A stretch of DNA of 64,000 nt from Actinomycetes bacterium (GCA_965278945.1 OZ257128.1:1426623-1490622), one strand, 5' to 3'. Shown: positions 7,208-47,089, counted from the first letter of the stretch. Notes: generated by a model from the letters alone, not told the origin. Made by a program: numbers and translations.

Positions 7208-8134
7208 ATGCCGACCGCGAGGTTCTGCTCGGTGATCTGCGTGCCCGAGCGGACGTGGCGGCGATGGCAGGCCAAGGCCCGTGCCGACCGGCCGTCGAAA
7301 GGGCCGTGGCCCCAACCGGTGCGACAGGTGGCCAAGCCCGCAGTCGTCGCGCACGCCAGTGCGCACGTGGCGTGGGGGCATCGCAAGATCTGGGCGATGA
7401 CCCGCCGTGACGGCATCGCGGTGTCGCCGTCGACGGTGATGCGGGCGCTGCGGGACGAGAACCTGTTGCAGTCAGCGGACTATCAGCGCGAGCGGCGTCA
7501 GTTGGCGGCGGCCCGAAAGGCCGCGTTCTGCACTCCGCCGACCGGCCCGAACCAGGTCTGGCAGTTGGACTTCTCCGACTTCGAGACCATCGCCGGCGGC
7601 ACGTGGCGGATCGCCGGCTGCCGGGACTACTGGAGCAAGCTCGAGCCGCCTTGGCACATCTCCCCGACCGCGAACCACCTCGACGCGATCGAGGCCGTCG
7701 AGCTCGCGCTGGCCGAATACGAGCGGTTGTTCGGGCATCGGCTGGTCGATGAGTGCCCCGTCGACATGAAGACCGGCCAGCTGCTGCCGGTCCTCACCCT
7801 GGTCACCGACAACGGCGGGCCGTTCCGGGCGTTCCGGTTCGAGACATTCATCGCCCAGCACCCTGAGCTGCGGCACGTGCGCACGCGGGTGAGGTCACCG
7901 GGCCAGAACGGATCCCGCGAGCGCGGCTTCGAGTCCTTGAAATACGAGCGGCTCTACCTGGAGGAGATCGACGACGGCCTGGACCTGGCCCGGCACGCCG
8001 AGGCGTACCGCATCGAATACAACACGATCAGGCCGCATGAGGCCCTGGCCTGGAACACCCCGCTGGACGTCCACGTGGGCCTGACCGACCCCTCAACCAC
8101 CTTTCAAGCGGCCGAAATCCTGCCACCTTCTTGA
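7208..8134 (+). CDS. IS3-family transposase OrfB (rve/DDE integrase core), probably made as an OrfAB fusion by -1 frameshifting
   Basis: DDE-core blocks are present (VWQLDFSDF, TLVTDNGGPFRA, PGQNGSRERGFESLKYE, YNTIRPHEAL). The orfB frame is open upstream to at least nt 7139, overlaps orfA, and sits at -1 relative to it. I could not find a canonical slippery heptamer. Confidence 0.8.
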   Translation: MPTARFCSVICVPERTWRRWQAKARADRPSKGPWPQPVRQVAKPAVVAHASAHVAWGHRKIWAMTRRDGIAVSPSTVMRALRDENLLQSADYQRERRQLAAARKAAFCTPPTGPNQVWQLDFSDFETIAGGTWRIAGCRDYWSKLEPPWHISPTANHLDAIEAVELALAEYERLFGHRLVDECPVDMKTGQLLPVLTLVTDNGGPFRAFRFETFIAQHPELRHVRTRVRSPGQNGSRERGFESLKYERLYLEEIDDGLDLARHAEAYRIEYNTIRPHEALAWNTPLDVHVGLTDPSTTFQAAEILPPS

Positions 8135-11400: not shown

Positions 11401-12156
11401 TCAGGCGCGCCTGCCGCCGTCCACGACGATCGCCTGACCTGTGAGATACCTGCTCTCGTCGCTAGCCAGGTGCAACACGATTTGCGCAACGTCATCGGGC
11501 TGCCCGATGCGCTCGAGCATCTGACGATCAATATAGGCAGCGCGACGATCGGGGTCGGCCAGCATCGCTGCGGTAGCTGGGGTCTCGATGATTCCCGGGC
11601 ATACCGCGTTGCAGCGAACGCCGTGCCGGCCATAGTCGAGCGCGACCGAACGCGTGAGGGCGACGACGCCACCCTTCGCGGCCGTGTACGCGGCGAAGCG
11701 TGGTAGCGCGCTGAGCCCGGCCGTCGACGCCGTGTTCACAATCGCGCCACCGCCGCCGGCAATCATGTGCGGCAGCGCGGCCCGGCAGCCCAGAAAAACG
11801 CTGGTCAACGACACCGTCAGTGTTCGCTGCCAGTCCTCGATGGTCGTCTCGACGACTGGAACGTCCTTGGGCGCCCAATAGGCATTGTTGTGGAGTACGT
11901 CCAGCCTTCCAAAGCGCTCAACCGCGGAGTCCATCAGATTCACGACGTCACTCTCGGAGCCGACATCGCAGCGGACGGCGTAGGACTTGCCTCCCGCGGC
12001 GGTCACGAGCTCGGCGGTCCGTTCCACTCCGGACTCGTCGATGTCGGCGACAATCACTGTCGCTCCCTCACGGGCCAGCAGCAGCGCGGTCGCCCGTCCG
12101 ATGCCCGACGCCGATCCCGTGATGACTGCGATCTTGCCCTCAACCCGACCAACCAC
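11401..12156 (-). CDS. short-chain dehydrogenase/reductase (SDR); candidate cis-dihydrodiol dehydrogenase
   Basis: It has the TGSASGIG cofactor motif, NNA, and a YxxxK region (YTAAKGGVVALT). The GTG start follows GAGGAG. It is the last gene of the long minus-strand catabolic run. Confidence 0.85.
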   Translation of the reverse strand: MVGRVEGKIAVITGSASGIGRATALLLAREGATVIVADIDESGVERTAELVTAAGGKSYAVRCDVGSESDVVNLMDSAVERFGRLDVLHNNAYWAPKDVPVVETTIEDWQRTLTVSLTSVFLGCRAALPHMIAGGGGAIVNTASTAGLSALPRFAAYTAAKGGVVALTRSVALDYGRHGVRCNAVCPGIIETPATAAMLADPDRRAAYIDRQMLERIGQPDDVAQIVLHLASDESRYLTGQAIVVDGGRRA

Positions 12157-12212: not shown

Positions 12213-13103
12213 CTATGCCGAGACGGCGAACTCCGCGATCGCCGTCCCCGTGAGCCACTCGGGCACGGCGGCGTAGAACCAGGGCTCAAGGCTGGCGCCG
12301 CCAGCGAAGCCTGCTGCGGCCACCCAGTTGCGGATCTCCTGGGCACCGTTCCCCCCACGGCTCTCAATCTCCTCCGTCGTCCACTCGAGGATGTCGGCCC
12401 ACCTGGCCTGCCCGGCTAGCGAGAGGAAGGCACTGTCAAAGTCTTCATTCACTGGACCCTCGAGACCAACCTCTACAGGGTAACTCGCGATATCTGGGAG
12501 CCGGGTGCCTGCCTGGCGTCGCATGAACCGTCGTCGTTCATCGGATCCGACCCAGTGCGATAGCCCTCCGGTACCCAGGACGGCAACGCGCCTTCTTGAC
12601 CGTTGCGCGACCTGTCCGAGGACTTCTCCGACTCGATAGCTGCGGGTCAGACGCGGCTGCGGAGGGATACCACAATTCTGTGTCACGGGCACGATCATCG
12701 GTCGATCCTCGCCGAAAGCGAGAAGCAGGGGGGTGACGAATGAATGGTCGATCCGGACATCTTCGGAGAAGGCGAGATCGATCTCTGCGTCGATAGCGCC
12801 CGCCAGCATCTCCGCGGCTAGATTCTGATCGACAGGGAACTCGACGACTGGAAGCCCGCCATCGCCCATGCCCGTCGCCTTGGGGCCGACGCCAATCGTG
12901 AACGCCGGTACGTGATCAAGTGTGAATCGACGGCCGTGGTCGGTCCCGAAGACCACGAGAGTGTCCACGTTGGCCTCGATGAGGCGATCTGCCATGCGTC
13001 GGAACGCCGCGTGGAGGTCGTTCCACAGCGCGGGATCGACGGCTGCCTGGCGCGTGATCATTAGTGCAGCATGCGATGAGGCGAACGCGGCGACGACCGT
13101 CAT
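12213..13103 (-). CDS. class III (LigB-type) extradiol ring-cleavage dioxygenase, paralogue A
   Basis: LigB-family blocks are present (AAFASSHAALM, VVFGTDHG, DHSFVTPLL, LGTGGLSHWVG). The ATG at 13103 overlaps the hydrolase stop (ATGA). The ORF-track N-terminal extension to 13280 overlaps the hydrolase gene and is rejected. Confidence 0.8.
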   Translation of the reverse strand: MTVVAAFASSHAALMITRQAAVDPALWNDLHAAFRRMADRLIEANVDTLVVFGTDHGRRFTLDHVPAFTIGVGPKATGMGDGGLPVVEFPVDQNLAAEMLAGAIDAEIDLAFSEDVRIDHSFVTPLLLAFGEDRPMIVPVTQNCGIPPQPRLTRSYRVGEVLGQVAQRSRRRVAVLGTGGLSHWVGSDERRRFMRRQAGTRLPDIASYPVEVGLEGPVNEDFDSAFLSLAGQARWADILEWTTEEIESRGGNGAQEIRNWVAAAGFAGGASLEPWFYAAVPEWLTGTAIAEFAVSA

Positions 13104-13981
13104 GACGCCGGCGACCATGGGGAGAGCAGGAAGTCCGAGAGCGCCGCGTTGAAGATATCGGGCTCCTCCCACTGCGGCCAGTGTCCGCAGCGTTCCATGA
13201 GGACGAACTCGGCGTTTGGGACCAACGCGGCTGCGCGCCGCGCGGTCTCTGCCGTCGTCGTCGGATTGTCGCTCGTCCACAGGAACAGCGTTGGCTGGAC
13301 GATTCCGGAGAGGACGTCCGGCGTGAGTGGAGCCGCCTGCTGGTTGCTCAAGCGGTTGTTTGCATCGGCAAGGACGCGGGCAGCCTCGTCCTGCTGGTAC
13401 ATCACCCAGCGGATGTCGACCAACTCATCAGTGAGACTGGCGGCGGGGTCAAAGAAGAGCCACTCCATTCTCCGACGGACCGCGTCACGGCTCGGATTGG
13501 CAACGAACTCACCAGTCAGTCGCCGTAACTCGCTGAGCCCGTCCTTCATGTGCTGACGGGACGCGTCGTCCTCCTCAATGCCGAGCCGCGCACCGCATAC
13601 TGATACGAGCTTGGTGACGCGGTCGGGATGGCGAATCGCGGTCCACATCGCAATCCACCCGCCGAGGGACTCGCCAACCAGATAGGCCTGCGTGATTCCG
13701 GCCGCGTCGAGCAGCGCCAGCAGGTGCTCCACGTAGTCGTCCAAGCCGGGAGCGGTCGAAGGGGCGTCGGTGAGACCGAATCCCAGATAGTCGACTGCGA
13801 GTACACGGAAGTCCTTGCTCAACGGTATGACGTTGCGGGCGAACGCCTCGGCGTGCCCGCCCTGACCATGAAGCAGGACAACGGCAGGACCCGAGCCCGC
13901 CTCGATGCACCGCGTACGAATGCCGCCCGCGTCGTAGTAGCGGACCTCCGCTCCCAGCAACTCGACCCAGACGGTGTTCAC
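13100..13981 (-). CDS. meta-cleavage-product (C-C bond) hydrolase, alpha/beta fold, copy 1
   Basis: It has the oxyanion motif LLHGQGG, the nucleophile elbow GESLGG, and a C-terminal CGHWPQWEEPDIFNAALSDFL typical of BphD/MhpC-type hydrolases. The GTG start overlaps the upstream stop (GTGA). Confidence 0.85.
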   Translation of the reverse strand: MNTVWVELLGAEVRYYDAGGIRTRCIEAGSGPAVVLLHGQGGHAEAFARNVIPLSKDFRVLAVDYLGFGLTDAPSTAPGLDDYVEHLLALLDAAGITQAYLVGESLGGWIAMWTAIRHPDRVTKLVSVCGARLGIEEDDASRQHMKDGLSELRRLTGEFVANPSRDAVRRRMEWLFFDPAASLTDELVDIRWVMYQQDEAARVLADANNRLSNQQAAPLTPDVLSGIVQPTLFLWTSDNPTTTAETARRAAALVPNAEFVLMERCGHWPQWEEPDIFNAALSDFLLSPWSPAS

Positions 13982-15318
13982 GACTGCTCCTTGTGATGGT
14001 TTCCGGTCGCCGCCAGAACAGGCTCAGCGTCGTCTCCGGTCGGATGAAATGCGAGGCTGGACCGCGCCGGTACCTGTCGCTCCATAAAGATCTCGCTGCC
14101 TGTGCTCGCGGACTTGAGAATCGCTAGGCACACCTCCAGCGTCGCCATCCCCCAACGCCCGTCATGGAACAACGGGCGATCCTGGACAACGGCTTCGTAC
14201 ATCTCGGTGAGCTCAGCCGTGCGACCAGTCGCGCCCTTCTCGATCGTGATCTCCTCGGCACCCCGTGAGCCGTAGACCATCAGCCCGTGCGGGCTCTGCC
14301 GGACCACGCCTTGCTCGCAGCTGACGAGCGTGTAACCGAAGTACGGCTGATACAGGCTCGGTCCCCCCGTGTAGCCGAACAGCGCCATCGTCTCGCCGTC
14401 GGCGTCCGGTGTTCCGTACCGGCCCTGCTCCTTCTGGGCATCAAGCCGCGCGTCGAGGTCATCGTCATCACGAGAGCTCGCCTTGAGGTCAAGGAAGTTC
14501 TGCCGCATACGAATCGACCTACCGACTGCTCGCTGCTGACCACCTTCTCCAATATGGCCGAACAGTTCACCGCTGTCGAAGAATCCCCTAGCATCGAAAG
14601 CGAGCAACGCGGTCGCGCCATCACGAAACGTCAGGAAGCAGTTGTAGCCAGCCTCGACTCCTCGCAGGTCATCCCAGATGACAGAGGCGCGGACGCTGTG
14701 CACTAGGCCTCCCGCAACCTGACGGACGATGTCGACCTGATGCGGACCCTGATTGAGGACCGGCCCGTGGCTCGAAACCAGTTCCCGGTTTGGCCACGGC
14801 AGGACGTTGAAGTCGTTGTAGTTGAACGTCATGACCGAGACGAGAGCGCCCAGCTCTCCGGACTCGACGAGCTCCTGCAGCCGCAGGATCGGCGGATCAA
14901 AACTGTGCGTATGCCCAGCCATGAGCTTGATGCCGCAGGCATCCGCCACCTCGATCATCTTCTCTGCGTCAGCCAACGTGGAGGCCATTGGCTTTTCGAC
15001 GATCACATGCTTGCCTGCCTGCGCGGCCAGCGTCACGTGCTCAAGTCGCTGTTCCGGGAGTGTGGCGATGTACAGCACATCGACGTCCGGATCTGCACAC
15101 AGCTCAGCGACACTCGTGTAGGCGCGGCCGCCAAATTCCTCCTGGAACATCGTCAAAGCCCCGCGGCGCTCCTCGCGCTCAGCAGCGGCGACCACGCGAT
15201 ACGGCAACTGCGCGAGCTCGGTCTTGCGACGAAGGATGAGGTTCACCGCCTGCCCGAGACCGACAAAGCCGAGACCAAGTTGGCGCTGCGGAACCTCGTT
15301 CATCTCTGTTGTCCTCAC
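13978..15318 (-). CDS. Gfo/Idh/MocA-family NAD(P)-dependent oxidoreductase, copy 1
   Basis: It has an N-terminal Rossmann region (LGFVGLGQA ... VLYIATLPEQRLEHVTLAAQAGKHVIVEKPMA). It is 446 aa long. Dihydrodiol and semialdehyde dehydrogenases such as LigC and phthalate dihydrodiol dehydrogenase belong to this family, but the substrate is not assignable. Confidence 0.85.
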   Translation of the reverse strand: MRTTEMNEVPQRQLGLGFVGLGQAVNLILRRKTELAQLPYRVVAAAEREERRGALTMFQEEFGGRAYTSVAELCADPDVDVLYIATLPEQRLEHVTLAAQAGKHVIVEKPMASTLADAEKMIEVADACGIKLMAGHTHSFDPPILRLQELVESGELGALVSVMTFNYNDFNVLPWPNRELVSSHGPVLNQGPHQVDIVRQVAGGLVHSVRASVIWDDLRGVEAGYNCFLTFRDGATALLAFDARGFFDSGELFGHIGEGGQQRAVGRSIRMRQNFLDLKASSRDDDDLDARLDAQKEQGRYGTPDADGETMALFGYTGGPSLYQPYFGYTLVSCEQGVVRQSPHGLMVYGSRGAEEITIEKGATGRTAELTEMYEAVVQDRPLFHDGRWGMATLEVCLAILKSASTGSEIFMERQVPARSSLAFHPTGDDAEPVLAATGNHHKEQS

Positions 15319-15475
15319 GTGGGGGTGACGGCTTTGCGCACGGGTGAGGCCATCAACTCGCCCCAGTAGCGGTAAAACTCACGTTGGTTCTCCTCGCTGA
15401 GCCCGTCGATGACAGTGCCAGGCCAGTTGGGGCCCTGCTCCATCAGCACCTCCCTGCCTGCGCCGAACTGACACA
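15315..15475 (-). pseudogene. 3' remnant of a Rieske oxygenase alpha-subunit gene (left behind by the duplication)
   Basis: The last 39 codons (GPNWPGTVIDGLSEENQREFYRYWGELMASPVRKAVTPT) are identical to the end of the intact gene at 19050..20414. A 135-bp in-frame deletion follows. After that come about 40 bp of degraded homology with a 2-bp indel, and then homology is lost. Confidence 0.7.
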
Positions 15476-15640
15476 CCCGTGCGCGTCGCCCAACCCTCCG
15501 CACACCCCCCAGTTCCCCTTGCGTGCCAGACACACTCTCGGGCCTGAACTCGTCATCGATCGACCCACATTGATGCCACCGACGGCCCCATCGGTCACAT
15601 TGCACAACCAGTTTGTGGGTCGCGCACGCTGCGATCCCCC

Positions 15641-16591
15641 TCAACTTTCCCTCGGTGTCCACGATCCGACCGCCATGCCCATGAGTCCGCGATAGAACGG
15701 CTCATATGTAAGGAAGTCGAGGAGGGGCTCGTCACCCAACGCGGCCAGAAGGGCAATCCAAGCCCGCAACTCCACTTGTCCGTGATCGAGTAGATCTGCG
15801 CCGGATAGTTCGCTCAGCCGTTGAGTCTGGCCGCTCGTTAACGTGTCCACGAGACTCTTATCGAAGGCCTCATCGATGTCGCCGTGCCCCATCTGGCCCC
15901 GATAACTCTTCCATGGATAGCCAGCCGTGAAATGGGACCAACCTCCCGAGGCGTAAATGGCCACCCGTTCGCCCGCAGGGCGATTCGCAGCCACGCGGGA
16001 CAACAACTCGCCGAACTGCGCGCATCGCCACGGCTCGACTGAGGGATGGTGAATGGCGTTCATGAACACTAGAACTACCGGAATGTCCGCGCGAGGCGTG
16101 ATGTTAGCTAGTACCTGTGCGTGTGCATGAGACTTTAGTTCATCGCCTTCGAACCGGCCTACCGAGGCGAGGTCGAAACCTTCGAATACGCCTTGCTCAA
16201 GGAGGTCACTCGAAAATTCGCGATGACTTGTGTACTTAGTCGACGTGGCACTCGACCTCGCCAAGGTGAACTCGGTACCCGTGTAAACTGCCAGTTGAGG
16301 GGTGTTCGCGGTACTGAAGTTCTCGTCTTGGTCATCGCCGACGACGACCAAGACGTCCGGAAGCGTGGACGCCAATTTTGCACGTATAGCCTCGAGCGCC
16401 TCTTGAATAGGCGCAAACCTCCTGCGGTTCGCCTCCAGACTCTCACGAAGGACGCCGTCCGGGGCCTTAGGCAGAAACCCATAGCGCTTCTCGAACACAC
16501 GACGGTTCCCGTCACGGTAGTAGTCCCAGTCATCGATCGGCATGAAAGTGAAGGCGTGAGAGGAGGCCAAGCCAGCCACTATCTTCCCCAT
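15641..16591 (-). CDS. class III (LigB-type) extradiol ring-cleavage dioxygenase, paralogue B
   Basis: LigB-family blocks are present (GLASSHAF, VVVGDDQDENF, SHAHAQVL, ASGGWSHF). The ATG follows GGAGGTGA. It lies in the unique spacer between the two duplicated copies. Confidence 0.8.
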   Translation of the reverse strand: MGKIVAGLASSHAFTFMPIDDWDYYRDGNRRVFEKRYGFLPKAPDGVLRESLEANRRRFAPIQEALEAIRAKLASTLPDVLVVVGDDQDENFSTANTPQLAVYTGTEFTLARSSATSTKYTSHREFSSDLLEQGVFEGFDLASVGRFEGDELKSHAHAQVLANITPRADIPVVLVFMNAIHHPSVEPWRCAQFGELLSRVAANRPAGERVAIYASGGWSHFTAGYPWKSYRGQMGHGDIDEAFDKSLVDTLTSGQTQRLSELSGADLLDHGQVELRAWIALLAALGDEPLLDFLTYEPFYRGLMGMAVGSWTPRES

Positions 16592-16722
16592 ACTTCCGTC
16601 ACCTCCGTGCGTTCACCGTGTTCGACCAACACGCCGGCAGAGCGTTCCCTGCCGACTGCCGTTCGCAGTTCGCCAATGCTTTTCATAACGCTTCCTTATG
16701 TTGGAATACGCGTGGATGAAGG

Positions 16723-16838
16723 CTTGGGGCCGACGCCAATCGTGGACGCCGGTACGTGATCAAGTGTGGATCGACGGCTGCCTGGCGCGTGATCATTAGT
16801 GCAGCATGCGATGAGGCGAACGCGGCGACGACCGTCAT
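16723..16838 (-). pseudogene. 5' remnant of LigB-type dioxygenase A (duplicate copy, 109-bp deletion, truncated)
   Basis: It encodes MTVVAAFASSHAALMITRQAAVDP and then shifts frame. Compared with copy 1, the 109 bp between two ATCGACGG octamers are missing. Homology ends at 16723. Confidence 0.7.
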
Positions 16839-17716
16839 GACGCCGGCGACCATGGGGAGAGCAGGAAGTCCGAGAGCGCCGCGTTGAAGATATCGGGCTC
16901 CTCCCACTGCGGCCAGTGTCCGCAGCGTTCCATGAGGACGAACTCGGCGTTCGGGACCAACGCGGCTGCGCGCCGCGCGGTCTCTGCCGTCGTCGTCGGA
17001 TTGTCGCTCGTCCACAGGAACAGCGTTGGCTGGACGATTCCGGAGAGGACGTCCGGCGTGAGTGGAGCCGCCTGCTGGTTGCTCAAGCGGTTGTTTGCAT
17101 CGGCAAGGACGCGGGCAGCCTCGTCCTGCTGGTACATCACCCAGCGGATGTCGACCAACTCATCAGTGAGACTGGCGGCGGGGTCAAAGAAGAGCCACTC
17201 CATTCTCCGACGGACCGCGTCACGGCTCGGATTGGCAACGAACTCACCAGTCAGTCGCCGTAACTCGCTGAGCCCGTCCTTCATGTGCTGACGGGACGCG
17301 TCGTCCTCCTCAATGCCGAGCCGCGCACCGCATACTGATACGAGCTTGGTGACGCGGTCGGGATGGCGAATCGCGGTCCACATCGCAATCCACCCGCCGA
17401 GGGACTCGCCAACCAGATAGGCCTGCGTGATTCCGGCCGCGTCGAGCAGCGCCAGCAGGTGCTCCACGTAGTCGTCCAAGCCGGGAGCGGTCGAAGGGGC
17501 GTCGGTGAGACCGAATCCCAGATAGTCGACTGCGAGTACACGGAAGTCCTTGCTCAACGGTATGACGTTGCGGGCGAACGCCTCGGCGTGCCCGCCCTGA
17601 CCATGAAGCAGGACAACGGCAGGACCCGAGCCCGCCTCGATGCACCGCGTACGAATGCCGCCCGCGTCGTAGTAGCGGACCTCCGCTCCCAGCAACTCGA
17701 CCCAGACGGTGTTCAC
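16835..17716 (-). CDS. meta-cleavage-product hydrolase, copy 2 (protein identical to copy 1)
   Basis: The 293-aa translation is identical to that of 13100..13981. There is one synonymous difference (T at 13217 versus C at 16952). Confidence 0.85.
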   Translation of the reverse strand: MNTVWVELLGAEVRYYDAGGIRTRCIEAGSGPAVVLLHGQGGHAEAFARNVIPLSKDFRVLAVDYLGFGLTDAPSTAPGLDDYVEHLLALLDAAGITQAYLVGESLGGWIAMWTAIRHPDRVTKLVSVCGARLGIEEDDASRQHMKDGLSELRRLTGEFVANPSRDAVRRRMEWLFFDPAASLTDELVDIRWVMYQQDEAARVLADANNRLSNQQAAPLTPDVLSGIVQPTLFLWTSDNPTTTAETARRAAALVPNAEFVLMERCGHWPQWEEPDIFNAALSDFLLSPWSPAS

Positions 17717-19053
17717 GACTGCTCCTTGTGATGGTTTCCGGTCGCCGCCAGAACAGGCTCAGCGTCGTCTCCGGTCGGATGAAATGCGAGGCTGGACCGC
17801 GCCGGTACCTGTCGCTCCATAAAGATCTCGCTGCCTGTGCTCGCGGACTTGAGAATCGCTAGGCACACCTCCAGCGTCGCCATCCCCCAACGCCCGTCAT
17901 GGAACAACGGGCGATCCTGGACAACGGCTTCGTACATCTCGGTGAGCTCAGCCGTGCGACCAGTCGCGCCCTTCTCGATCGTGATCTCCTCGGCACCCCG
18001 TGAGCCGTAGACCATCAGCCCGTGCGGGCTCTGCCGGACCACGCCTTGCTCGCAGCTGACGAGCGTGTAACCGAAGTACGGCTGATACAGGCTCGGTCCC
18101 CCCGTGTAGCCGAACAGCGCCATCGTCTCGCCGTCGGCGTCCGGTGTTCCGTACCGGCCCTGCTCCTTCTGGGCATCAAGCCGCGCGTCGAGGTCATCGT
18201 CATCACGAGAGCTCGCCTTGAGGTCAAGGAAGTTCTGCCGCATACGAATCGACCTACCGACTGCTCGCTGCTGACCACCTTCTCCAATATGGCCGAACAG
18301 TTCACCGCTGTCGAAGAATCCCCTAGCATCGAAAGCGAGCAACGCGGTCGCGCCATCACGAAACGTCAGGAAGCAGTTGTAGCCAGCCTCGACTCCTCGC
18401 AGGTCATCCCAGATGACAGAGGCGCGGACGCTGTGCACTAGGCCTCCCGCAACCTGACGGACGATGTCGACCTGATGCGGACCCTGATTGAGGACCGGCC
18501 CGTGGCTCGAAACCAGTTCCCGGTTTGGCCACGGCCTGGCGTTGAAGTCGTTGTAGTTGAACGTCATGACCGAGACGAGAGCGCCCAGCTCTCCGGACTC
18601 GACGAGCTCCTGCAGCCGCAGGATCGGCGGATCAAAACTGTGCGTATGCCCAGCCATGAGCTTGATGCCGCAGGCATCCGCCACCTCGATCATCTTCTCT
18701 GCGTCAGCCAACGTGGAGGCCATTGGCTTTTCGACGATCACATGCTTGCCTGCCTGCGCGGCCAGCGTCACGTGCTCAAGTCGCTGTTCCGGGAGTGTGG
18801 CGATGTACAGCACATCGACGTCCGGATCTGCACACAGCTCAGCGACACTCGTGTAGGCGCGGCCGCCAAATTCCTCCTGGAACATCGTCAAAGCCCCGCG
18901 GCGCTCCTCGCGCTCAGCAGCGGCGACCACGCGATACGGCAACTGCGCGAGCTCGGTCTTGCGACGAAGGATGAGGTTCACCGCCTGCCCGAGACCGACA
19001 AAGCCGAGACCAAGTTGGCGCTGCGGAACCTCGTTCATCTCTGTTGTCCTCAC
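17713..19053 (-). CDS. Gfo/Idh/MocA-family oxidoreductase, copy 2
   Basis: It is identical to copy 1 except NDFNVLPW versus NDFNARPW, caused by three substitutions within 4 nt. The GTG start at 19053 overlaps the alpha-subunit stop (GTGA). An ATG at 19038 preceded by GAGGA is an alternative start. Confidence 0.85.
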   Translation of the reverse strand: MRTTEMNEVPQRQLGLGFVGLGQAVNLILRRKTELAQLPYRVVAAAEREERRGALTMFQEEFGGRAYTSVAELCADPDVDVLYIATLPEQRLEHVTLAAQAGKHVIVEKPMASTLADAEKMIEVADACGIKLMAGHTHSFDPPILRLQELVESGELGALVSVMTFNYNDFNARPWPNRELVSSHGPVLNQGPHQVDIVRQVAGGLVHSVRASVIWDDLRGVEAGYNCFLTFRDGATALLAFDARGFFDSGELFGHIGEGGQQRAVGRSIRMRQNFLDLKASSRDDDDLDARLDAQKEQGRYGTPDADGETMALFGYTGGPSLYQPYFGYTLVSCEQGVVRQSPHGLMVYGSRGAEEITIEKGATGRTAELTEMYEAVVQDRPLFHDGRWGMATLEVCLAILKSASTGSEIFMERQVPARSSLAFHPTGDDAEPVLAATGNHHKEQS

Positions 19054-20414
19054 GTGGGGGTGACGGCTTTGCGCACGGGTGAGGCCATCAACTCGCCCCA
19101 GTAGCGGTAAAACTCACGTTGGTTCTCCTCGCTGAGCCCGTCGATGACAGTGCCAGGCCAGTTGGGGCCTCCCTCGATTCGAGGTTGGTCGAGTCGAGAT
19201 CCATAGTTAAAAGGCCAATGCTTGCCTTCAGTGCTTCGCAGGTTCTGCTGAAGACGCTCAAAGTTCTCGTGGTCATCAGGTGCGAACACGCCCGCTGCTG
19301 ACTGCTGCTCCATCAGCACCTCACACTGCCTACGCCGAACTGACGCGGGAGCATCGCGGTTCACAGCGCACCACTGCCACACCTCGGTCTCGTTAGGCCC
19401 ACGTGGCATCCACATGATTAAGCCCACGCCGTCGAAAGCAGTACCCAGACCGACAATGGAGAAGTTAGGAAAGATGTTGCCGACGTGGAAGCCATACGGC
19501 ACCGGGTCAACGCCCTGCTCAGCCATTTGGCGCGAACGTGTCTCGTGGCGCTTGCGCACCCATTCGACGGCCTCTGGCCCCAACAGTTCCGCCTGCGCCA
19601 GGTCATGCTCGTAGTAGGAGTCACCAACCCGGATCTCAAGGAGACCGTGGGGCGCTCCGTGACCGTGGTTGCAGGCGACCGCAAAGCTCGTGCCCGCTGC
19701 CCTGACGTCACGACCCGGAAGAACTCCCAAACGTGGATCAATCTCGGCAGCCCGGACAGCCAGCACAGATGCGTGAGTGACCGTCACATGAGTCTGGTCG
19801 CCAGCGAAGTTCTCGGCCAGGAGTTTCCAGTTTGCTGGCATGCGGTAGCGCTGCAAGCCTGGCAGTACCTCAAGTCCACCGATGGCGTCGTCTAGCATCA
19901 TCTGCTCGAGATACCACGCGGCCTCGCCGAGGTACTCGGCTAGCCCCGGACCAACCTCGCTCCACGTTGCGAAAATCAGCCCGTGAAACTCCTCCACGCG
20001 AGGCGCACGAACCAGGCCCCACTTTGACTTGTCGAAATCCTCTCCATAGGTGATGTCCTGGAACGGCACAGCCTTTAGCGTGCCGTCGCCCGTGTAGGAC
20101 CACCCGTGATAACTGCACGTGAACGATCGGCCATTGCCGTGGTCGAACAGGCACACACGATTGCCCCTGTGGCGGCACTTATTCAGCAGCACGTTGATCT
20201 GCTCACCTGAACCACGGGTCAAAATGACCGGGTCTTCGCCCATGTACGTCGACACGTAGTCGCCACGGTGCGGAATCATGGACGTGTGGCCGACGAACAG
20301 CCAAGCCTGGCCGAAGACCCTCTCCAACTCGGCCTCGTAAGTTTCGTCTGAGAAGACGTCCTTGCTCAGCAGCCCCGCGTCGGAAGGATTGTGGTGTTCC
20401 ATTCTTGTATTCAT
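19050..20414 (-). CDS. Rieske non-heme iron oxygenase, large (alpha) subunit, paralogue 1 (intact Rieske motif; no adjacent beta gene)
   Basis: It has the Rieske motif CRHRGNRVCLFDHGNGRSFTCSYHGW and the mononuclear-iron motif ENFAGDQTHVTVTH plus APDDHENFE. The ATG at 20414 follows GGAGGC. The ORF-track start at 20471 is less likely. Confidence 0.85.
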   Translation of the reverse strand: MNTRMEHHNPSDAGLLSKDVFSDETYEAELERVFGQAWLFVGHTSMIPHRGDYVSTYMGEDPVILTRGSGEQINVLLNKCRHRGNRVCLFDHGNGRSFTCSYHGWSYTGDGTLKAVPFQDITYGEDFDKSKWGLVRAPRVEEFHGLIFATWSEVGPGLAEYLGEAAWYLEQMMLDDAIGGLEVLPGLQRYRMPANWKLLAENFAGDQTHVTVTHASVLAVRAAEIDPRLGVLPGRDVRAAGTSFAVACNHGHGAPHGLLEIRVGDSYYEHDLAQAELLGPEAVEWVRKRHETRSRQMAEQGVDPVPYGFHVGNIFPNFSIVGLGTAFDGVGLIMWMPRGPNETEVWQWCAVNRDAPASVRRRQCEVLMEQQSAAGVFAPDDHENFERLQQNLRSTEGKHWPFNYGSRLDQPRIEGGPNWPGTVIDGLSEENQREFYRYWGELMASPVRKAVTPT

Positions 20415-20507
20415 ACTGCCTCCGTCCAATAAATCTCCGAGTCGTGACTGACGTTCGCGAACACTGGCCATGGCGGCCGTCCCCGTGAGGGACGGCCGCC
20501 ACCAGCA

Positions 20508-21785
20508 CTACTGACCGATGATCTCGTTCAGGATTTCCGTACCGGGAGCCATCGCCGACTTCACGTAGTCCTCGGTGTTCTGATCGAGATACTCGACGCC
20601 AGGCTGAGGAATGATCTCGGCCGGCACGTTCGGAGTGATCGCAACGTCAGCGCGGGTCGTCGGCTGGTCGAACGACAGCTGCATCGCTGCGGCGCCGCGT
20701 GGGCTCGCCAGCCAGTTCGCGAACACTGCTGCTGCTGCCGGGTGCGGCGACTTATCGAACAACCGCAGGATCCCAAAGCCGCTCGTGAGCACGCCGGGAG
20801 CGTCCGTTGGGAAGACAGGAACCAGCGGGAAACCCTCGGCCCGCAACTGCTGGGTCTGCTTCACATCGAGTCCGAGTCCCACCGGGTACGTACCACGGGC
20901 AACCCAGTCAGCGAGTTGCCGCTGATCGGTTGAGAATGCGACTTCCTGAGTCCCATAGAACTGCTCGGCGAACTCACGGCCCTTGTCGATCGCCATGAAG
21001 ACCGCAGCCGGGCTTCCCGGGCCTGGCCGCCGCGGATCGAACTGCGCAATCTTGCCTGTGAACTCCGGCTTGAGCAGATCGTCCCATGTCTGTATCGAGG
21101 CGGGATCCACAATGTCCGCGTTAACGGTCGGGTACGCGGTGACGTAAAGCAGCACGCGAAGGAGGTACTCAGCGCTGTTGTCCTGCCACTGCAGCGCGCC
21201 GCCCTGCCAACCAGCCGGATCCGTAACGCTCGGCAGCAGCAACTCGGGCTTCAGGGGGCGAAGCAGACCTGCAGGCAGATCGTCAAGCACGCCCGGGTAT
21301 CCGGAGAGGAAGACGTCCAGCGACATCTGACCGGCGGCCGCCTCCTGACGGAGCTTCCCGGTGATCTCGGCCGGCACCGCGTTGGGGAGGTAGTCCACCT
21401 TGATTCCAGTATCTGCCTCGAACTGGCTGCTCAGCATGTCGCGAACCGCGGGGTTCGGGCTAGACGCGATCGCGACGCTGCCTTCCGCCTGACCGGCAGC
21501 CAGGAGAGCGTCCCATTCCGCACCGCCACCATCGGCCCATGTCGCGTACTGAGCGAGGACTTCCTGCTGCTGCTCGGGTGAGAGCTGGACCGCAAGGCCC
21601 TCGCCCTCCGGTGGCGCGCTGCTGCCAGCTGCAGCGCTAGCGGCAGAACTGGGTGCCATGCTGGCCGCCGAAGATGACTCAGAGGAGGAGTTGCTACCGC
21701 ACGCGGCCAGGAGGACCACGGAGGAAATCACCGCCAGTGCACGCGCAGCGGCCCATGGGGACCGTCGGTACGACAGAGCGTTCAT
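20508..21785 (-). CDS. ABC transporter substrate-binding lipoprotein (family-1 solute-binding, Fe3+/polyamine-like fold class)
   Basis: It has a signal peptide with a lipobox (VVLLAAC GS) followed by a Ser/Ala-rich linker. The ATG follows GGAAAGG. Size and composition fit a type II periplasmic binding protein. The ligand is unknown. Confidence 0.8.
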   Translation of the reverse strand: MNALSYRRSPWAAARALAVISSVVLLAACGSNSSSESSSAASMAPSSAASAAAGSSAPPEGEGLAVQLSPEQQQEVLAQYATWADGGGAEWDALLAAGQAEGSVAIASSPNPAVRDMLSSQFEADTGIKVDYLPNAVPAEITGKLRQEAAAGQMSLDVFLSGYPGVLDDLPAGLLRPLKPELLLPSVTDPAGWQGGALQWQDNSAEYLLRVLLYVTAYPTVNADIVDPASIQTWDDLLKPEFTGKIAQFDPRRPGPGSPAAVFMAIDKGREFAEQFYGTQEVAFSTDQRQLADWVARGTYPVGLGLDVKQTQQLRAEGFPLVPVFPTDAPGVLTSGFGILRLFDKSPHPAAAAVFANWLASPRGAAAMQLSFDQPTTRADVAITPNVPAEIIPQPGVEYLDQNTEDYVKSAMAPGTEILNEIIGQ

Positions 21786-21977: not shown

Positions 21978-22544
21978 TCAGAAGAAGATCGAGACGGTGC
22001 GAGGTAGGACGGGATGGCCAAGCTCGATGTGCCGGCGGAGTAAGCGGAACCCTTGTGGAGTGCGCCTGATCTGGTCCCACCGCGAGCCCACGAATGTGCT
22101 TTCGTTGCGCTCATGGCGGACCTGGTGGACGAGGAACGTCGATCGCACTCGATACAGATCCTCATCGTCCGGGTCTGGAGTGGCTGTCACATTGCTAACG
22201 AGATGATTCGTGATCGACTCCGGCAGTTCTGCGTGCGCCATCCCCGTATCGAGGCGACGAACCCGCATGTTCAGGGAGTTGTAGTCCTCGTCGAAAACCC
22301 AGAAGCGCAACGGTGCTTCGGCTTCATCGGTGCGCACGCCCCATCGAGCGGCGTCCCGCGCCGCACGGTCCTGAGGAGTTGCTGGCGGAGGGAGGACGCC
22401 CGTGCTCGGCATGACATACCGGATGTTGGGATCTAGGATCCCGAGCCATGCGTCAAAGAGATGGTCATCGAGCAACTGCGCCTCTTCGAATAGGAAGGCT
22501 TGAAGATCCGCAGTCACCTCCGCGTCAATCGTCCCGAGATTCAT
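21978..22544 (-). CDS. Rieske oxygenase small (beta) subunit (SnoaL/NTF2-like)
   Basis: Typical beta-subunit N-terminus (LQAFLFEEAQLLDDHLFDAWLGILDPNIRYVMP) and C-terminus (IRRTPQGFRLLRRHIEL). The ATG overlaps the stop of alpha paralogue 2 (ATGA). Confidence 0.85.
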   Translation of the reverse strand: MNLGTIDAEVTADLQAFLFEEAQLLDDHLFDAWLGILDPNIRYVMPSTGVLPPPATPQDRAARDAARWGVRTDEAEAPLRFWVFDEDYNSLNMRVRRLDTGMAHAELPESITNHLVSNVTATPDPDDEDLYRVRSTFLVHQVRHERNESTFVGSRWDQIRRTPQGFRLLRRHIELGHPVLPRTVSIFF

Positions 22545-23875
22545 ACGTGCCCTCCGTCCTGGCCGCTGTCGGCCATCACCTCGCCCCAGTAGCGGTAAAA
22601 CTCACGTTGAATCATCTCTGTGAAGCGCGGCAGGACGAGGCCCGGCCACGCGGGGTTCTGCCATTCGAGAGGACGAACGTCGACGCCCTCGCCCTGTAGT
22701 CCCATCTCGTAGTTGAACGGCACAAACCTCGCCTGACGGGTCCGTGTGTTCTCCGACAATCGCTCGAAGTTCTCGTGGTCATCAGGAGCGAAGATGCCGG
22801 CGGCAGCCTGCTGATGCGTTATCGAGAAGCACATCTGTTCTTTCAGCACTCTCGGCGCGCCCGCATCTACGAACGAATACTGAGAGACGACCGTTTCGTA
22901 CGGCCCCCTCGGGTGCCATACGAGCAGCCCCACTGCTTCCATGGCAGTGCCGTTTCCGACGATCGACAGCGTCGGGAACACGTTCCCGACATGAAAGCTG
23001 TAGGGCTTGATCGATAGTTCGGGTAGGCGCTCATCAATCGACGCACGTCTCGTACGGACCCAGTCTCCTGCGGCCTGTGACAGCGTTTGCGCGCGGGCGA
23101 GGTCGTGCTCGTAGAACTCCTCGCCGACCCGTACCTCGAGGAAGCCGTGCGGCACTCCGTTGCGGTATCCGGTTGCTACAGAGAGGTTTGCGCCGATGCC
23201 CTTGGCGGGCGAGTTGATCAGACGTGGCTCCACACCCTGTGCGCGCAGACTGAGGACCGACGCGTGCGTGATGGCAACGTGGTAGTCGTCGCCGGCGAAG
23301 TTCTCCGCAAGCAACTTCCAATTTCCCGGCATGGCGTAGCGATGGACATCGGGAACGAGCTCGAGCCCACCGATGTCCTCACGCAACAGGTAGTTGTCGA
23401 GGTACCAAGCGGCATCTCCCAAGTGGTCCAGCAACGTCATGGTGGGGGCGCGCAGGGTTGCGAAGACCAGGCCTCCGAAAACCTCCACGCCGCCTGTCTG
23501 CACAAGGCACGGGGGCAGATCCGCGTTGTCGATGCCACCAAGAAGTCGTCCGGCTGTGTCGTAGCTGCGGCGGTGAGAGGGGCAATCCAGATGAATGGCG
23601 ACGCCCGCGTCGCAACTGACAAATCGACTGCAGGCCGTGGAGCATGCGTTGACGAAAACGCGGAGAATGTCATCTGCTCCGCGCAGCAGGATCACCGGGG
23701 TTTCTCCCATCCAAGTGGTTACATAGTCAAGGGTTCGCGGCACCTGCTGCACGTGACCGACGAAGAGCCAAGATGTGCGGAAGACCGCCTCCATCTCTGA
23801 TTCGTAGACATCGGGGTCGTACACCGAGCAGTCGACAAGCCCGGTGTCGAGCGAAAACCGCTCTGCAACTCGCAT
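22541..23875 (-). CDS. Rieske-oxygenase alpha-subunit paralogue 2 with a degenerate Rieske motif
   Basis: It aligns with paralogue 1 along its whole length. The catalytic motif ENFAGDDYHVAITH and APDDHENFE are conserved. The Rieske segment reads CSTACSRFVSCDAGVAIHLDCPSHRR, with Thr in place of the first His and RR in place of GW. The ATG follows AGGAGGA. Confidence 0.8.
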   Translation of the reverse strand: MRVAERFSLDTGLVDCSVYDPDVYESEMEAVFRTSWLFVGHVQQVPRTLDYVTTWMGETPVILLRGADDILRVFVNACSTACSRFVSCDAGVAIHLDCPSHRRSYDTAGRLLGGIDNADLPPCLVQTGGVEVFGGLVFATLRAPTMTLLDHLGDAAWYLDNYLLREDIGGLELVPDVHRYAMPGNWKLLAENFAGDDYHVAITHASVLSLRAQGVEPRLINSPAKGIGANLSVATGYRNGVPHGFLEVRVGEEFYEHDLARAQTLSQAAGDWVRTRRASIDERLPELSIKPYSFHVGNVFPTLSIVGNGTAMEAVGLLVWHPRGPYETVVSQYSFVDAGAPRVLKEQMCFSITHQQAAAGIFAPDDHENFERLSENTRTRQARFVPFNYEMGLQGEGVDVRPLEWQNPAWPGLVLPRFTEMIQREFYRYWGEVMADSGQDGGHV

Positions 23876-38506: not shown

Positions 38507-39892
38507 TGTCAACTCCTCGGCGAGACTCACGAGAAATGCCCGCGAAACGGTGAGCGTGTGGGGGGAGGAATGGGTTGTCTATGCAGTCTCGTCCCGAGGT
38601 CTCCTTCAGGTATGGCACGGCGTACGCGAGGGCGTCGAAGGTGGACAAGGGTCGGATTCTGGATGAGGTGGTGTCGGTGACGGGGTGGTCGCGTGACAAC
38701 GCCCGGCGTCGACTCGGTGTTGCCGCCAGGGCCCGACCAGGGGCTGGTCGGGCGGTCGTGAGACCGGTCCGCAAGCCGCGGTCGCCGAAGTATTCGCTCG
38801 ACGCTGTGAACGTGCTGGCGCGGGTGTGGGCGGCCTCGGGTGGGCAGTGCGGGAAGTACCTCGCGGCGTCGATGCGGATCCAGCTCGACGGCCTGGAGCG
38901 TCACGGTGAACTCCTGGCCGGCGTCAACGGGTACGGCCCGGGCGTGCGGGCCGAGCTGCTGTCGATGAGCGCGGCGTCGATCGACCGCTATCTAAAGGGC
39001 GTCAAGGCCACCGACCAGATCCGTGGCAGGAGCACCACGGAACCGTCGCCGTTGCTGAGGTCCTCCATCGCCATCCGCAGGGCCGGGGACGAGGCCGAGG
39101 CCGAGCCGGGCTTCTTCGAAGGTGACACCGTCGCGCACTGCGGTCCCACCCTCAAGGGCGAGTTCGCCCGCACGCTGAACCTCTCTGACGGCCATACCGG
39201 GTGGGTGTTCACCCGCAGCGTGCGCAACAACGCCAACGTTCACATTCTGGCCGCGCTCAAGGCCGGTATCGAGGAGATCCCGTTCGAGGTGACCGGGCTG
39301 GACTTCGACAACGGCACCGAGTTCTTGAACAAGCCCGTCATCGCCTGGGCCGCAGGCATGGAGATCTTCTTCACCCGCTCACGGCCCTACAAGAAGAACG
39401 ACCAGGCGACCATTGAGTCGAAGAACAACCACCTCGTGCGCAAATACGGGTTCTACTACCGCTACGACACCGCTGAGGAACGCGTCGTGCTGAACCGGCT
39501 CTGGGCACTGGTCAACGACCGGCTCAACTACCTGACCCCGACGAAGAAGCCCATCGGGTACGGCACCGACCGGGGCGGCCGGCGCACCCGGATCTACGAC
39601 GACCCAGCGACCCCGCTGGACCGGCTCCTGGCCGCCAGCGTCCTATCCCCTGTCCAGGCCGCCGACCTGATCGCCTACCGCGACTGCCTCAACCCCGCCG
39701 CGATCGCACGCCAGATCGCCGACCTGCAAACCGTCCTGCTCACCTTGGCGAAGGACAAGACCGAACAACTCTACCTCGCCAGCTTCCCCACCGCCCTACC
39801 CGACATCCGCATCAAAGCCAGCTGACCACATTTCGTGGGCATTCCTAACTGAGGCACCGATCAACTTTCACGGGCATATTGACTTGAGGCAC
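38507..39892 (+). mobile_element. insertion sequence carrying a single rve-type transposase gene (family uncertain; boundaries approximate)
   Basis: The ends share inverted copies of an AATGCCC(G/A)CGAAA motif (one copy on the left, two on the right) and TCGG..CTCA blocks. I could not identify a clear target duplication. Confidence 0.55.
38575..39825 (+). CDS. DDE transposase (retroviral-integrase/rve core)
   Basis: The N-terminal HTH-like region reads RILDEVVSVTGWSRDNARRRL. The DDE triad is visible in FFEGDTVAH, GLDFDNGTEF and QATIESKNNHLVR, with D-35-E spacing. It may be ISNCY/IS1202-like or IS481-like; this cannot be decided without a search. Confidence 0.8.
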   Translation: MSMQSRPEVSFRYGTAYARASKVDKGRILDEVVSVTGWSRDNARRRLGVAARARPGAGRAVVRPVRKPRSPKYSLDAVNVLARVWAASGGQCGKYLAASMRIQLDGLERHGELLAGVNGYGPGVRAELLSMSAASIDRYLKGVKATDQIRGRSTTEPSPLLRSSIAIRRAGDEAEAEPGFFEGDTVAHCGPTLKGEFARTLNLSDGHTGWVFTRSVRNNANVHILAALKAGIEEIPFEVTGLDFDNGTEFLNKPVIAWAAGMEIFFTRSRPYKKNDQATIESKNNHLVRKYGFYYRYDTAEERVVLNRLWALVNDRLNYLTPTKKPIGYGTDRGGRRTRIYDDPATPLDRLLAASVLSPVQAADLIAYRDCLNPAAIARQIADLQTVLLTLAKDKTEQLYLASFPTALPDIRIKAS

Positions 39893-41420: not shown

Positions 41421-42587
41421 ATGAACGTCGGGTCACCGAAGTTGCCCGGAAGGCCATCGCGCGACTTCGTGGCGTCCGCGAGCGCGGCGACGATCTACTC
41501 GTTCGCGCTCGCGATCTCCAGCGTCGGCCTGCCGTTGCTGGCCCTCGGAGCAGGCTATTCGGCAGCCCAGGTCGGGATACTGGCGGCAATCTCCGCCGTT
41601 TCGCAACTGTTGACGCGACTGACACTGGGTGCCGTGATGCGCCGGTACGGCGACTGGACACTGATCGCCTCATCGGCGCTCATACTCGCCGTCAGCAACG
41701 GGTTGGCCGCGCTGTCGGCATCGGCGATCTCGCTCGTTCTCGCGGAACTCCTCCAGGGAGTGTCACGCGCCTTCTTCTGGACGGGAACCCAGACACATGT
41801 CGTCCGGCGTGCGACCAGTGCCGCAGCCGCACTCGCCGCCATCAATCTGGTGTCGTCAACCGGCCTGTTGGCCGGACCGGCAGTTGCCGGGATGCTCTCT
41901 GAGCACACGCCCGTGCTGGCGCTCAACGTCGCAGCTGGGGTGTCGCTTCTCGGCTGCGGACCCGCATTCTTCCTCGATAGGCTGCCCCCATTCGTGCCGC
42001 CGGCCGACAAGCAACCCGGGCGCATGTACCGACGTCCGGGTGTCGCCCTCGGATGCTGGGGGGGATTCTCAGCGGGCGCGTGGCGCGGGGTGCTGGGATC
42101 GTATGTGCCGGTCGCGCTTGATCTAGCACGGCAGTCAGCATCGACGATCGGGATCCTCGTGTCCGTCGCGAATGCAGCAGCGCTGGTCGGATCTGGCGTG
42201 GCCGGCCGTATACGCGCGCATGCATTCCGCAAGGTGATCCTGATCGGCATGGTCGCGATGGGTGTTGCCACCGCGGCAGTCCCCGCCTTGGCTAGCCTCA
42301 TCGTGCCGGCGGCGCTAGCCCTCATCGTGAGCGGCGTGGCGGCCGGTCTGGTCCAGGTGCTGAGCCTGGCGACCGCCTCCGACGCGGTGCACCCTGAGGA
42401 GCGAGGGGAGGCAATCGCGATAAGTGGAACCTTCCGCGCAGCCGCGCTCTTCGTCGCTCCGCTGGCCGTTGCAGCTATGGTGCTCGTCATTCCGCTCGCC
42501 GCTGCCGTGGCGGTCGTCGGAACGGCAATGACCGCACCTGCACTCGCGTTGCGGTCACGCAGTCCTGGCGACGCGCGCAACTCCTAG
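41421..42587 (+). CDS. MFS transporter
   Basis: The 388-aa product has about 12 hydrophobic segments and a loop 2-3-like motif ([13 protein letters not shown]). Its end overlaps the convergent aldolase gene by 4 nt. Confidence 0.8.
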
Positions 42588-46950: not shown

Positions 46951-47089
46951 GGGATGAGTTTCCAGCAAACCCAGGCAGTCAGTGAAGGCAGGGTAGCGCG
47001 AGGCTGATGAATCCTCATTGCGTCGCCGACCCCAATATCCGTCATGGAACAAGGGCGGCCCTCGACACTAGATTCGTATACTTCGGTCG

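Follow-up and report, generated by a model that had tools for sequence, protein, structure and literature searches.

When two sets of catabolic genes lie side by side in one operon and are almost identical, does their likeness mean that one was copied from the other recently? The question is raised by a stretch of 64,000 nucleotides (nt) from an Actinomycetes bacterium (GCA_965278945.1, OZ257128.1:1426623-1490622), hereafter the window. Here, an aromatic-degradation operon carries a hydrolase gene and a Gfo/Idh/MocA dehydrogenase gene (Gfo) twice, in direct orientation, and between the copies lies a 1.25-kb spacer encoding a LigB-type protein (LigB2). A preliminary description of the sequence had read this arrangement as a very recent duplication. 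The explanation that we favor, with a probability of about 0.8, is that the duplication is old, that a foreign cassette was captured with it, and that the two copies have been homogenized by gene conversion or unequal exchange.

Self-alignment placed the core of the repeat at 13033-15434 (copy A) and 16768-19169 (copy B), two segments of 2402 nt offset by 3735 nt and 99.83% identical, with four mismatches, at 13217 (T/C) and at 14801, 14802, and 14804 (AG.A/CT.G). In a comparison of the region from 10 to 23 kb with itself, this was the single long direct repeat, far beyond chance. Shorter pieces extend the repeat on both sides. On the left, 12879-12934, an outer edge of the original duplicated segment in copy A, matches 16723-16778 with 2 mismatches in 56 nt, at an offset of 3844 because the LigB1 stump of copy B (see below) has lost 109 nt. 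On the right, 15435-15471 matches 19305-19343 with two mismatches and a 2-nt indel, and it is displaced because the Rieske alpha stump of copy A has lost 135 nt, in frame. With both deletions restored, the duplicated segment measures ~2.73 kb. The repeat coordinates and the count of about six differences in the preliminary description (four in the core and two in the 56-nt piece) were reproduced; the offset of 3735, taken there to be constant, does not hold at the left end.

All genes of the duplicated operon are on the minus strand. Along transcription, they encode an alpha-like protein (alpha1), a beta subunit, a solute-binding protein (SBP), an intact Rieske oxygenase alpha subunit (alpha2), the copy B dehydrogenase and hydrolase, and a 5′ stump of another LigB-type dioxygenase (LigB1), with LigB2 next. 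After LigB2 come a 3′ stump of alpha2, the copy A dehydrogenase and hydrolase, the intact LigB1, and a short-chain dehydrogenase/reductase (SDR). Self-alignment and Pfam confirmed the earlier proposal of a real head-to-tail duplication in which the hydrolase and Gfo genes are complete and both copies keep the GTGA and ATGA overlaps of start and stop codons, with a LigB1 5′ stump at the edge of copy B, and a Rieske alpha 3′ stump at the edge of copy A. The layout is U-R-S-R-D, where R is the repeat and S the spacer; 1.25 kb of unrelated DNA separates the stumps, so there is no simple end-to-start junction. The LigB1 stump (16683-16838) is a 51-aa open reading frame (ORF) with an ATGA overlap at each end, and the length of its internal deletion, 109 nt, equals the distance between two GCCGTCGAT repeats of the intact gene. 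The alpha2 stump (15315-15471), which bears the 135-nt deletion, retains the native region upstream of the Gfo start, while the last 120 nt of the intact alpha2 form the upstream end of repeat copy B.

To what extent does this structure exist outside the source assembly? Exact look-ups of window proteins gave no match; related contigs were reached through members of the 90% protein cluster, and four of them (L068, L071, L072, and L073) are ~98.6-98.9% identical to the window at the nucleotide level. L068 (JGI 3300046330) follows the window from 20247 to 16517, through alpha2, Gfo, and the hydrolase, and on past the LigB1 stump and the junction into the first part of LigB2. L072 (JGI 3300046332; window 18638 to 15442) crosses the joint between the LigB1 stump and the spacer and ends in the alpha stump before the core repeat. 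L073 (ENA ERZ27247451, 1450 nt; window 16801 to 15353) holds the whole spacer, both junctions, and repeat sequence on each side, and L071 (JGI 3300006033) runs from the SBP gene through alpha2, Gfo, and the hydrolase into an intact LigB1. The junction types U-R, R-S, S-R, and R-D were all found in these independent assemblies, from four samples. As all four joint types occur outside the source assembly, the smallest genome consistent with them is U-R-S-R-D, and the structure is real and not an assembly artifact. The length of L068 equals the repeat period (3735 nt); the possibility that it is a circular repeat-unit contig was rejected, as its ends do not overlap and 1078 nt of it are unique alpha sequence, and the agreement in length appears to be a coincidence.

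The 135-nt deletion of the alpha stump is also present in L072 and L073. At the deletion junction of the LigB1 stump (16768-16790), the window (109 nt lost) reads GAT-CCACACT, whereas L068, L072, and L073 have lost 108 nt, in frame, and read GATCCCGCGCT. A slippage hotspot may have given rise to separate deletions in the two lineages, a single event may have been resolved in two ways, or a short tract may have been converted from the intact gene.

More distant relatives carry the operon in single copy. L069 (84-87% nucleotide identity, Gfo 91% aa) has the unduplicated order alpha1-beta-SBP-alpha2-Gfo-hydrolase-LigB1-SDR with no LigB2 nearby, and L126 (Gfo 74% aa) likewise has alpha-Gfo-hydrolase-LigB1-SDR, with a LigB2-like gene (48%) 6 kb downstream. 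The comparison of syntenic clusters, put forward in the preliminary description as a way to find the unduplicated ancestor, therefore yielded the ancestral order, and duplication and insert together are derived in this species-level lineage. A scan of genome contigs with Gfo returned no relative above 55% aa.

How old is the duplication within this lineage? The window and the related contigs share the LigB1/spacer breakpoint, the spacer/alpha2 breakpoint, and the 135-nt deletion, and a stump-specific substitution (GTTCACG to GTCCACG) is found in all stumps (window, L068, L072, and L073), so that the duplication is older than the separation of these strains. Measured against the related contigs, the coding DNA of the window has diverged by 0.5-1.9%, the core repeat by 0.86%, and the stumps and non-coding spacer flanks by 1.9-4.9%. 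Without homogenization, the copies within one genome should differ at least as much as orthologs do, hence at ~21 sites of the core, but those of the window differ by only 0.17% (4 sites against ~20.7 expected, Poisson P = 1e-5). There are 16 sites at which the window copies share an allele found in none of the related contigs. With L069 as the outgroup, that allele is the derived one at four of them (15335, 15037, 14704, and 13160); without conversion, the same mutation would have had to arise twice at each site. Outside the core, the edge pieces are 3.6-5% diverged (4 of 93 nt vs 4 of 2402 nt in the core, Fisher P = 1e-4), and the near-identity breaks off precisely at the stump deletions of 109 nt and 135 nt. 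Taken together, the observations are consistent with concerted evolution, whether by gene conversion or by unequal exchange.

Conversion may also be read at the edge of the core in other strains. In the intact alpha2, L070 and L071 have GAGCAGGGC, the sequence that the deletion junction of the stump created, as against GAGGGAGG in the window, L068, and the outgroup; in this GAGCAG patch, which corresponds to window 19170-19176, L070 and L071 have CAG in place of GGA. The sequence that spans the deletion junction of the stump, GAGCAGGG, is present in the intact alpha of L070 and L071. Judging from these sequences, the patch must have been a conversion tract that crossed the core edge and carried stump sequence (copy A) into the intact alpha (copy B), which would mean that the L071 strain carries, or once carried, the duplication. 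Moreover, the 90% cluster contains only one Gfo protein per related sample; the copies should hence be near-identical in those strains too, which argues against a polishing artifact peculiar to the source assembly.

The spacer (15472-16722) lies outside the repeat and has no match elsewhere in the window. As described earlier, it holds a distantly related LigB-type gene with its own motif resembling a ribosome-binding site: LigB2 (15641-16591, minus strand) is 21% identical to LigB1, and GGAGGTG stands 8-14 nt ahead of its ATG. Beyond the near-identical strain contigs, its closest homolog is that of Nocardioides massiliensis (83% aa), and spacer 16644-15591 aligns to N. massiliensis DNA at 81.5%, the alignment taking in 53 nt ahead of the gene and 50 nt behind it. 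In N. massiliensis and in the L076 group, the gene stands in the order alpha-beta-hydrolase-LigB2-Rieske ferredoxin-major facilitator superfamily (MFS) transporter, and both neighbors of LigB2 have left traces in the spacer. Upstream, a 35-aa ORF (16579-16686, minus strand) is a remnant of the C-terminus of the donor-operon hydrolase (tblastn, RSAGVLVEHGERTEVTEVWGR vs RSVGVMEGQGQRPEVADTWAK), with 22 C-terminal residues and a stop that overlaps the LigB2 start as in the donor-type operon. Downstream, 15591-15640 (minus strand) is a frameshifted 5′ remnant of a Rieske-ferredoxin gene, as found by tblastn and frame comparison with 10954-11298 of L074. Because both remnants are retained, LigB2 would have been lifted from a hydrolase-LigB2-ferredoxin operon, and the spacer is, on this evidence, a cassette captured from a Nocardioides-type operon that comprises LigB2 plus bits of its two neighbors. 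The N. massiliensis cluster (L074) has transposases on its flanks.

LigB2 differs from its counterparts in L072 and L073 at 5 of 951 nt (0.53%) and its flanks at 2-5%, from which the gene is evidently under constraint. A LigB2 scan of metagenome contigs found nothing above 48%, and so neither a closer donor nor further junction-bearing contigs; a plasmid search gave no DNA match, and its best match in protein mode was 43-44%. The GC content of LigB2 (0.58; 0.66 at third codon positions) is below that of the hydrolase and Gfo and near that of alpha2 and beta, which does not settle whether the gene is foreign.

The near-identity of the copies invites the simple reading that they have had too little time to diverge. 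There are indeed only four differences in 2402 nt, and all are private to copy A, as a few new mutations after copying would be. We nevertheless regard a very recent tandem duplication as highly improbable, given that strains with a divergence of 0.9-5% have the same junctions, the 135-nt deletion of the alpha stump, and the stump substitution, that the spacer itself has diverged between strains, that the edge pieces next to the core have diverged by 3.6-5% against 0.17% within it, and that derived alleles are present in both copies. The argument could be rescued if the related contigs were chimeric or contaminated, which their own 1-5% divergence opposes. The "very recent" of the preliminary description is not supported; what we found is the very situation that it had named as speaking against itself, namely older paralogs kept alike locally by gene conversion. 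The same near-identity could have been produced by the assembly, either as a false duplication or as a real one whose identity was inflated by polishing with multi-mapped reads. The source, an unannotated contig of 3,653,917 nt, is probably a long-read assembly, and 2.4-kb repeats are prone to homogenization during polishing, but the chance of this seems slight to us: the joints U-R, R-S, S-R, and R-D recur in assemblies made independently from four samples, R is collapsed to one path with one Gfo per sample in the short-read assemblies of the related strains, and the four surviving differences show that polishing did not erase everything.

There is also the question of whether any duplication with capture took place, since unequal homologous recombination between two existing operon variants, one with LigB2 upstream of alpha-Gfo-hydrolase, could give a similar arrangement. 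Operons with both LigB1-like and LigB2-like genes exist (N. massiliensis L074 and L076; L126), and in the alphaproteobacterial L001 and L002, a LigB2-like gene directly follows Gfo. The joints, however, are illegitimate: the LigB1 and alpha fragments abut remnants of a foreign hydrolase and ferredoxin, from a different operon type, and not homologous crossovers. No relative was found with LigB2 immediately upstream of alpha-Gfo, and those at 91% and 74% have the plain single-copy operon, so that we give this explanation little credence. Of the possibilities raised in the preliminary description, it is thus the capture of a new ring-cleavage gene that is borne out, by the remnants of the donor neighbors, together with the view that this is no simple amplification, whereas recombination between related operon variants is not. 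Several points weigh against an old, homogenized duplication with a captured cassette. The related contigs come from short reads, with the copies collapsed, and none resolves both copies of one strain; L071 might derive from an unduplicated strain, though its CAG patch argues otherwise; and copy identity may be overstated if the source assembly was polished with multi-mapping reads. In addition, the LigB1-stump deletion of 109 nt in the window vs 108 nt in the related contigs requires an extra event, and the junctions do not reveal the mechanism of formation or any microhomology without the donor locus as it was at capture.

If the duplication is old and its copies homogenized, how might the locus have formed? 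Starting from an ancestral operon alpha1-beta-SBP-alpha2-Gfo-hydrolase-LigB1-SDR, a segment of ~2.73 kb, from 294 nt before the alpha2 end to 225 nt into LigB1, would have been duplicated head to tail, and the 1.25-kb cassette, drawn from a different aromatic-degradation operon of Nocardioides type (hydrolase-LigB2-ferredoxin), would have been placed at the new junction. A single illegitimate event seems likeliest, by end-joining with fragment capture or by replicative template switching; alternatively, a duplication could have been followed by an insertion that replaced the junction. One complex event is the simplest account because the stumps and the cassette adjoin without a gap, and neither side holds surplus alpha or LigB1 sequence that belongs on the other. 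With the target duplicated, no operon gene was broken, and each retained its native upstream region. The event is older than the divergence of strains now sampled in several metagenomes. Homologous recombination between the copies would afterwards have kept the 2.4-kb core nearly identical, with later deletions in both stumps bounding the core and the edge pieces outside it diverging at an approximately neutral rate. Recombination between the copies that lost the duplication would also delete LigB2, and selection for LigB2 would therefore explain why the duplication persists.

At each of the four remaining differences between the copies, copy B carries the allele of the related contigs and copy A one of its own. 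At 13217, the hydrolase codon changes without effect on the protein. The 14801-14804 patch reads GTC CTG (Val-Leu) in copy A, GCC AGG (Ala-Arg) in copy B, and GTC CGG (Val-Arg) in the outgroup, and the two Gfo proteins differ only there, at residues 172-173 (VL in A, AR in B). Residue 173, within the motif F-N-x-R-P-W-P, is Arg in 102 of 106 homologs, including copy B; copy A alone has Leu. A single step separates copy A from the outgroup, against three from copy B, which is odd for a fresh multi-base mutation. No GTCCTG template for the patch was found in the window or in 125 loci, and GTCCTG is absent from four related contigs, in which collapsed assembly could hide it. The Arg173Leu patch may reflect decay of a redundant copy, a recent clustered mutation, or maintained divergence. 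In any case, the substitution of a nearly invariant residue in copy A would weaken the idea, also raised earlier, that the duplication doubles the dosage of the enzymes.

The last of these possibilities has a bolder form, in which the duplication is a selectively maintained platform for two dehydrogenases that are starting to specialize. The patch would then be an island of old divergence, shielded by selection against conversion while its surroundings were homogenized, and the locus would be a case of innovation-amplification-divergence in a natural operon, with one dehydrogenase variant upstream of each ring-cleavage enzyme. Copy A does match the outgroup at two positions of the patch, to which Arg173Leu is added at a residue that hardly varies; the absence of GTCCTG from the related contigs weighs against an old divergence of the patch. 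We consider specialization unlikely.

Can the operon still be expressed as a unit across its junctions? The hydrolase B stop overlaps the ATG of the 51-aa LigB1-stump ORF (ATGA), the stop of which overlaps the ATG of the 35-aa hydrolase-remnant ORF (ATGA), which in turn ends over the LigB2 start. On the other side, a GTG-initiated ORF overlaps the LigB2 stop and crosses the alpha stump to the native alpha stop just ahead of the Gfo A start. In L068 and L072, the 108-nt in-frame deletion gives one 91-aa ORF with the same end point. A scan of the spacer for promoters and terminators found none above shuffled expectation, so that a single transcript across the operon is plausible, and the ORFs that bridge the junctions are short and translatable.

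From family membership, the operon would specify a pathway in which the Rieske dioxygenase forms a cis-dihydrodiol, the Gfo-type dehydrogenase re-aromatizes it to a catechol, LigB1 or LigB2 performs the ring opening, and the hydrolase cleaves the ring-opening product. The intact alpha2 (19050-20471) matches the Pfam Rieske and Ring_hydroxyl_A families, carries the Rieske motif CRH...CSYH and the iron site DQTHVTVTH, and is HcaE-like, under the NCBIfam equivalog cutoff. The sole beta-subunit gene of the window's operon is at 21978-22544 and the SBP gene at 20508-21785. Gfo occupies 17713-19053 in copy B, where gene callers choose an ATG at 19038 (441 aa), and 13978-15318 in copy A. It has the N- and C-terminal Gfo domains of Pfam and an EKP motif that is invariant in the alignment; its best solved relative is 7wzd, a 4,5-dihydroxyphthalate (cis-diol) dehydrogenase (E 4e-66, residues 12-412), and homologs in JGI are named phthalate 4,5-cis-dihydrodiol dehydrogenase. 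The hydrolase, of the meta-cleavage-product type, lies at 16835-17716 (copy B) and 13100-13981 (copy A), and the two proteins are identical. It has an alpha/beta-hydrolase fold (Pfam Abhydrolase_1) and a GESLGG nucleophile motif, and it resembles HsaD and BphD but fails both equivalogs (122 bits vs a cutoff of 400 for HsaD, 103 vs 462 for BphD).

The intact LigB1 (12213-13103) encodes 296 aa from the ATG at 13103, as does its ortholog in L069, and scores 110 bits against Pfam LigB (PF02900, cutoff 26.3 bits). Its closest solved protein is MhpB (PDB 8k04, E 2e-27), and a GTDH motif is present; in the NCBIfam MhpB equivalog test, it failed with 153 bits vs a cutoff of 286, and LigB2 reached 54 bits. 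The SDR gene (11401-12156) is the last gene of the ancestral operon and occupies the same place in L069 and L126.

What kind of protein is LigB2? It is a complete protein with the class III extradiol dioxygenase fold (Pfam LigB 57.7 bits) from an uncharacterized clade and has only weak sequence similarity to any solved protein. Its AlphaFold model (predicted local distance difference test, pLDDT, 91; predicted template modeling score, pTM, 0.92) adopts the LigB/DesB/MhpB fold, with Foldseek matches to LigB beta (1bou_B, E 1.5e-18), DesB, and MhpB. We take the iron ligands of LigB to be His12, His61 (the NDH histidine), and Glu242, and the GGMSH histidine to be the catalytic base. Aligned to LigB, LigB2 retains H12, H220, and E274, with H220 on the GGMSH histidine, and has Gln88 opposite the NDH histidine. 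Gln88 sits in a GDDQ[DN]E motif that is conserved in the clade, where Gln occurs in 107 of 120 homologs, and H12, E90, H155, H220, and E274 are invariant in a 36-sequence alignment. No member of the clade appears to have been characterized or solved. The clade, with Gln for a LigB iron-binding His, is widespread beside hydrolases in aromatic-degradation clusters and is a reasonable target for enzymology. In the alphaproteobacterial metagenome-assembled genomes (MAGs) L001 and L002, the order is alpha-beta-Gfo-LigB2-like, and judged by such gene neighborhoods, the LigB2-type dioxygenase is a recurrent partner of the Gfo dehydrogenase family.

Among known catabolic systems, the E. coli hca/mhp route for 3-phenylpropionate (HcaEF dioxygenase, HcaB dehydrogenase, the LigB-type dioxygenase MhpB, MhpC hydrolase, and MhpDFE) has the same order of chemistry: alpha2 and beta resemble HcaE and HcaF, LigB1 resembles MhpB (8k04), the hydrolase is of the MhpC/BphD/HsaD class, and lower meta-cleavage pathway genes lie at 42584-45329 of the window. 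The NCBIfam equivalog scores in the window are, however, all far under their cutoffs, and the dehydrogenase is of Gfo/Idh/MocA type, like 7wzd, and not of SDR type. The N. massiliensis-type cluster (L074 and L076; SDR-hydrolase-LigB-alpha-beta-hydrolase-LigB2-Rieske ferredoxin-MFS) likewise unites LigB1-like and LigB2-like dioxygenases in one operon, but its gene order and partners differ and it has no Gfo, so that it resembles the donor of the cassette and is not an ortholog of the operon.

Catabolic genes are reportedly duplicated and amplified in tandem by illegitimate recombination in the cat/ben region of Acinetobacter baylyi ADP1. As in that case, the copies here are head to tail, meet at a novel junction without long homology, and could be lost by homologous recombination. 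Unlike in ADP1, 1.25 kb from another operon, with a complete gene in it, occupies the junction, there are two copies only, and the arrangement is fixed across diverged natural strains instead of being a transient laboratory amplification. Two surveys deal with the concerted evolution of bacterial paralogs by gene conversion (PMC6053082, PMC8022953), for which rRNA operons and tuf genes serve as examples. The present locus shares with such cases that paralogs within a genome are closer than orthologs between strains despite an older duplication and that the tract is bounded by breaks in homology; it differs from rRNA operons and tuf in that the paralogs are adjacent in one operon, encode accessory catabolic enzymes, and have been homogenized over a short time scale (~1-5% divergence).

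Tandem duplication with an illegitimate junction and concerted evolution are both well known, and it is their combination here that is unusual, with a complete foreign gene at the junction, persistence across diverged strains, visible conversion boundaries, and a loss of the duplication that would delete the captured gene. The locus indicates how a tightly overlapping operon in uncultured populations can gain a foreign gene while its own genes stay unbroken: the insert ends up between two copies of the target, the stumps decay to short bridging ORFs, and recombination holds the copies alike. It follows that near-identity of tandem copies is no evidence of recent origin. Short-read metagenome assemblies collapse such loci, so that copy number and variants such as Arg173Leu are missed.

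At the head of the operon, alpha1 (22541-23875), directly upstream of the beta-subunit gene, has a degenerate Rieske motif in which one ligand is missing (C-S-T for the expected C-x-H) while C-P-S-H and the mononuclear iron motif DDYHVAITH are kept. Its orthologs in L069, L070, and L128 likewise match Pfam Rieske weakly, so the degenerate cluster site is conserved. The 3′ ends of alpha1 and alpha2, genes that are otherwise ~70% identical, share a 39-nt patch (22571-22609 vs 19083-19121 and 15348-15386) that is 97% identical and encodes QREFYRYWGE. It could result from micro-conversion between the paralogs or from very strong constraint.

The wider window is an aromatic-catabolism island with an ABC transporter, a ferredoxin reductase, a LigXa-like oxygenase, and two integrase genes, and its thiolase has its closest named relatives in Streptosporangiaceae MAGs (~80%). 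The integrase-core (rve) genes, at 7208-8134 and 38575-39825 (both on the plus strand), flank the operon region, and the window looks mosaic. Lastly, within 47020-47247, at the upstream end of and just past a histidine-phosphatase gene (46216-47052), stretches of 107 nt (78%) and 41 nt (85%) resemble the 3′ part of Gfo and the Gfo/hydrolase boundary in non-collinear order; they may be chance resemblances or the debris of an older copy.

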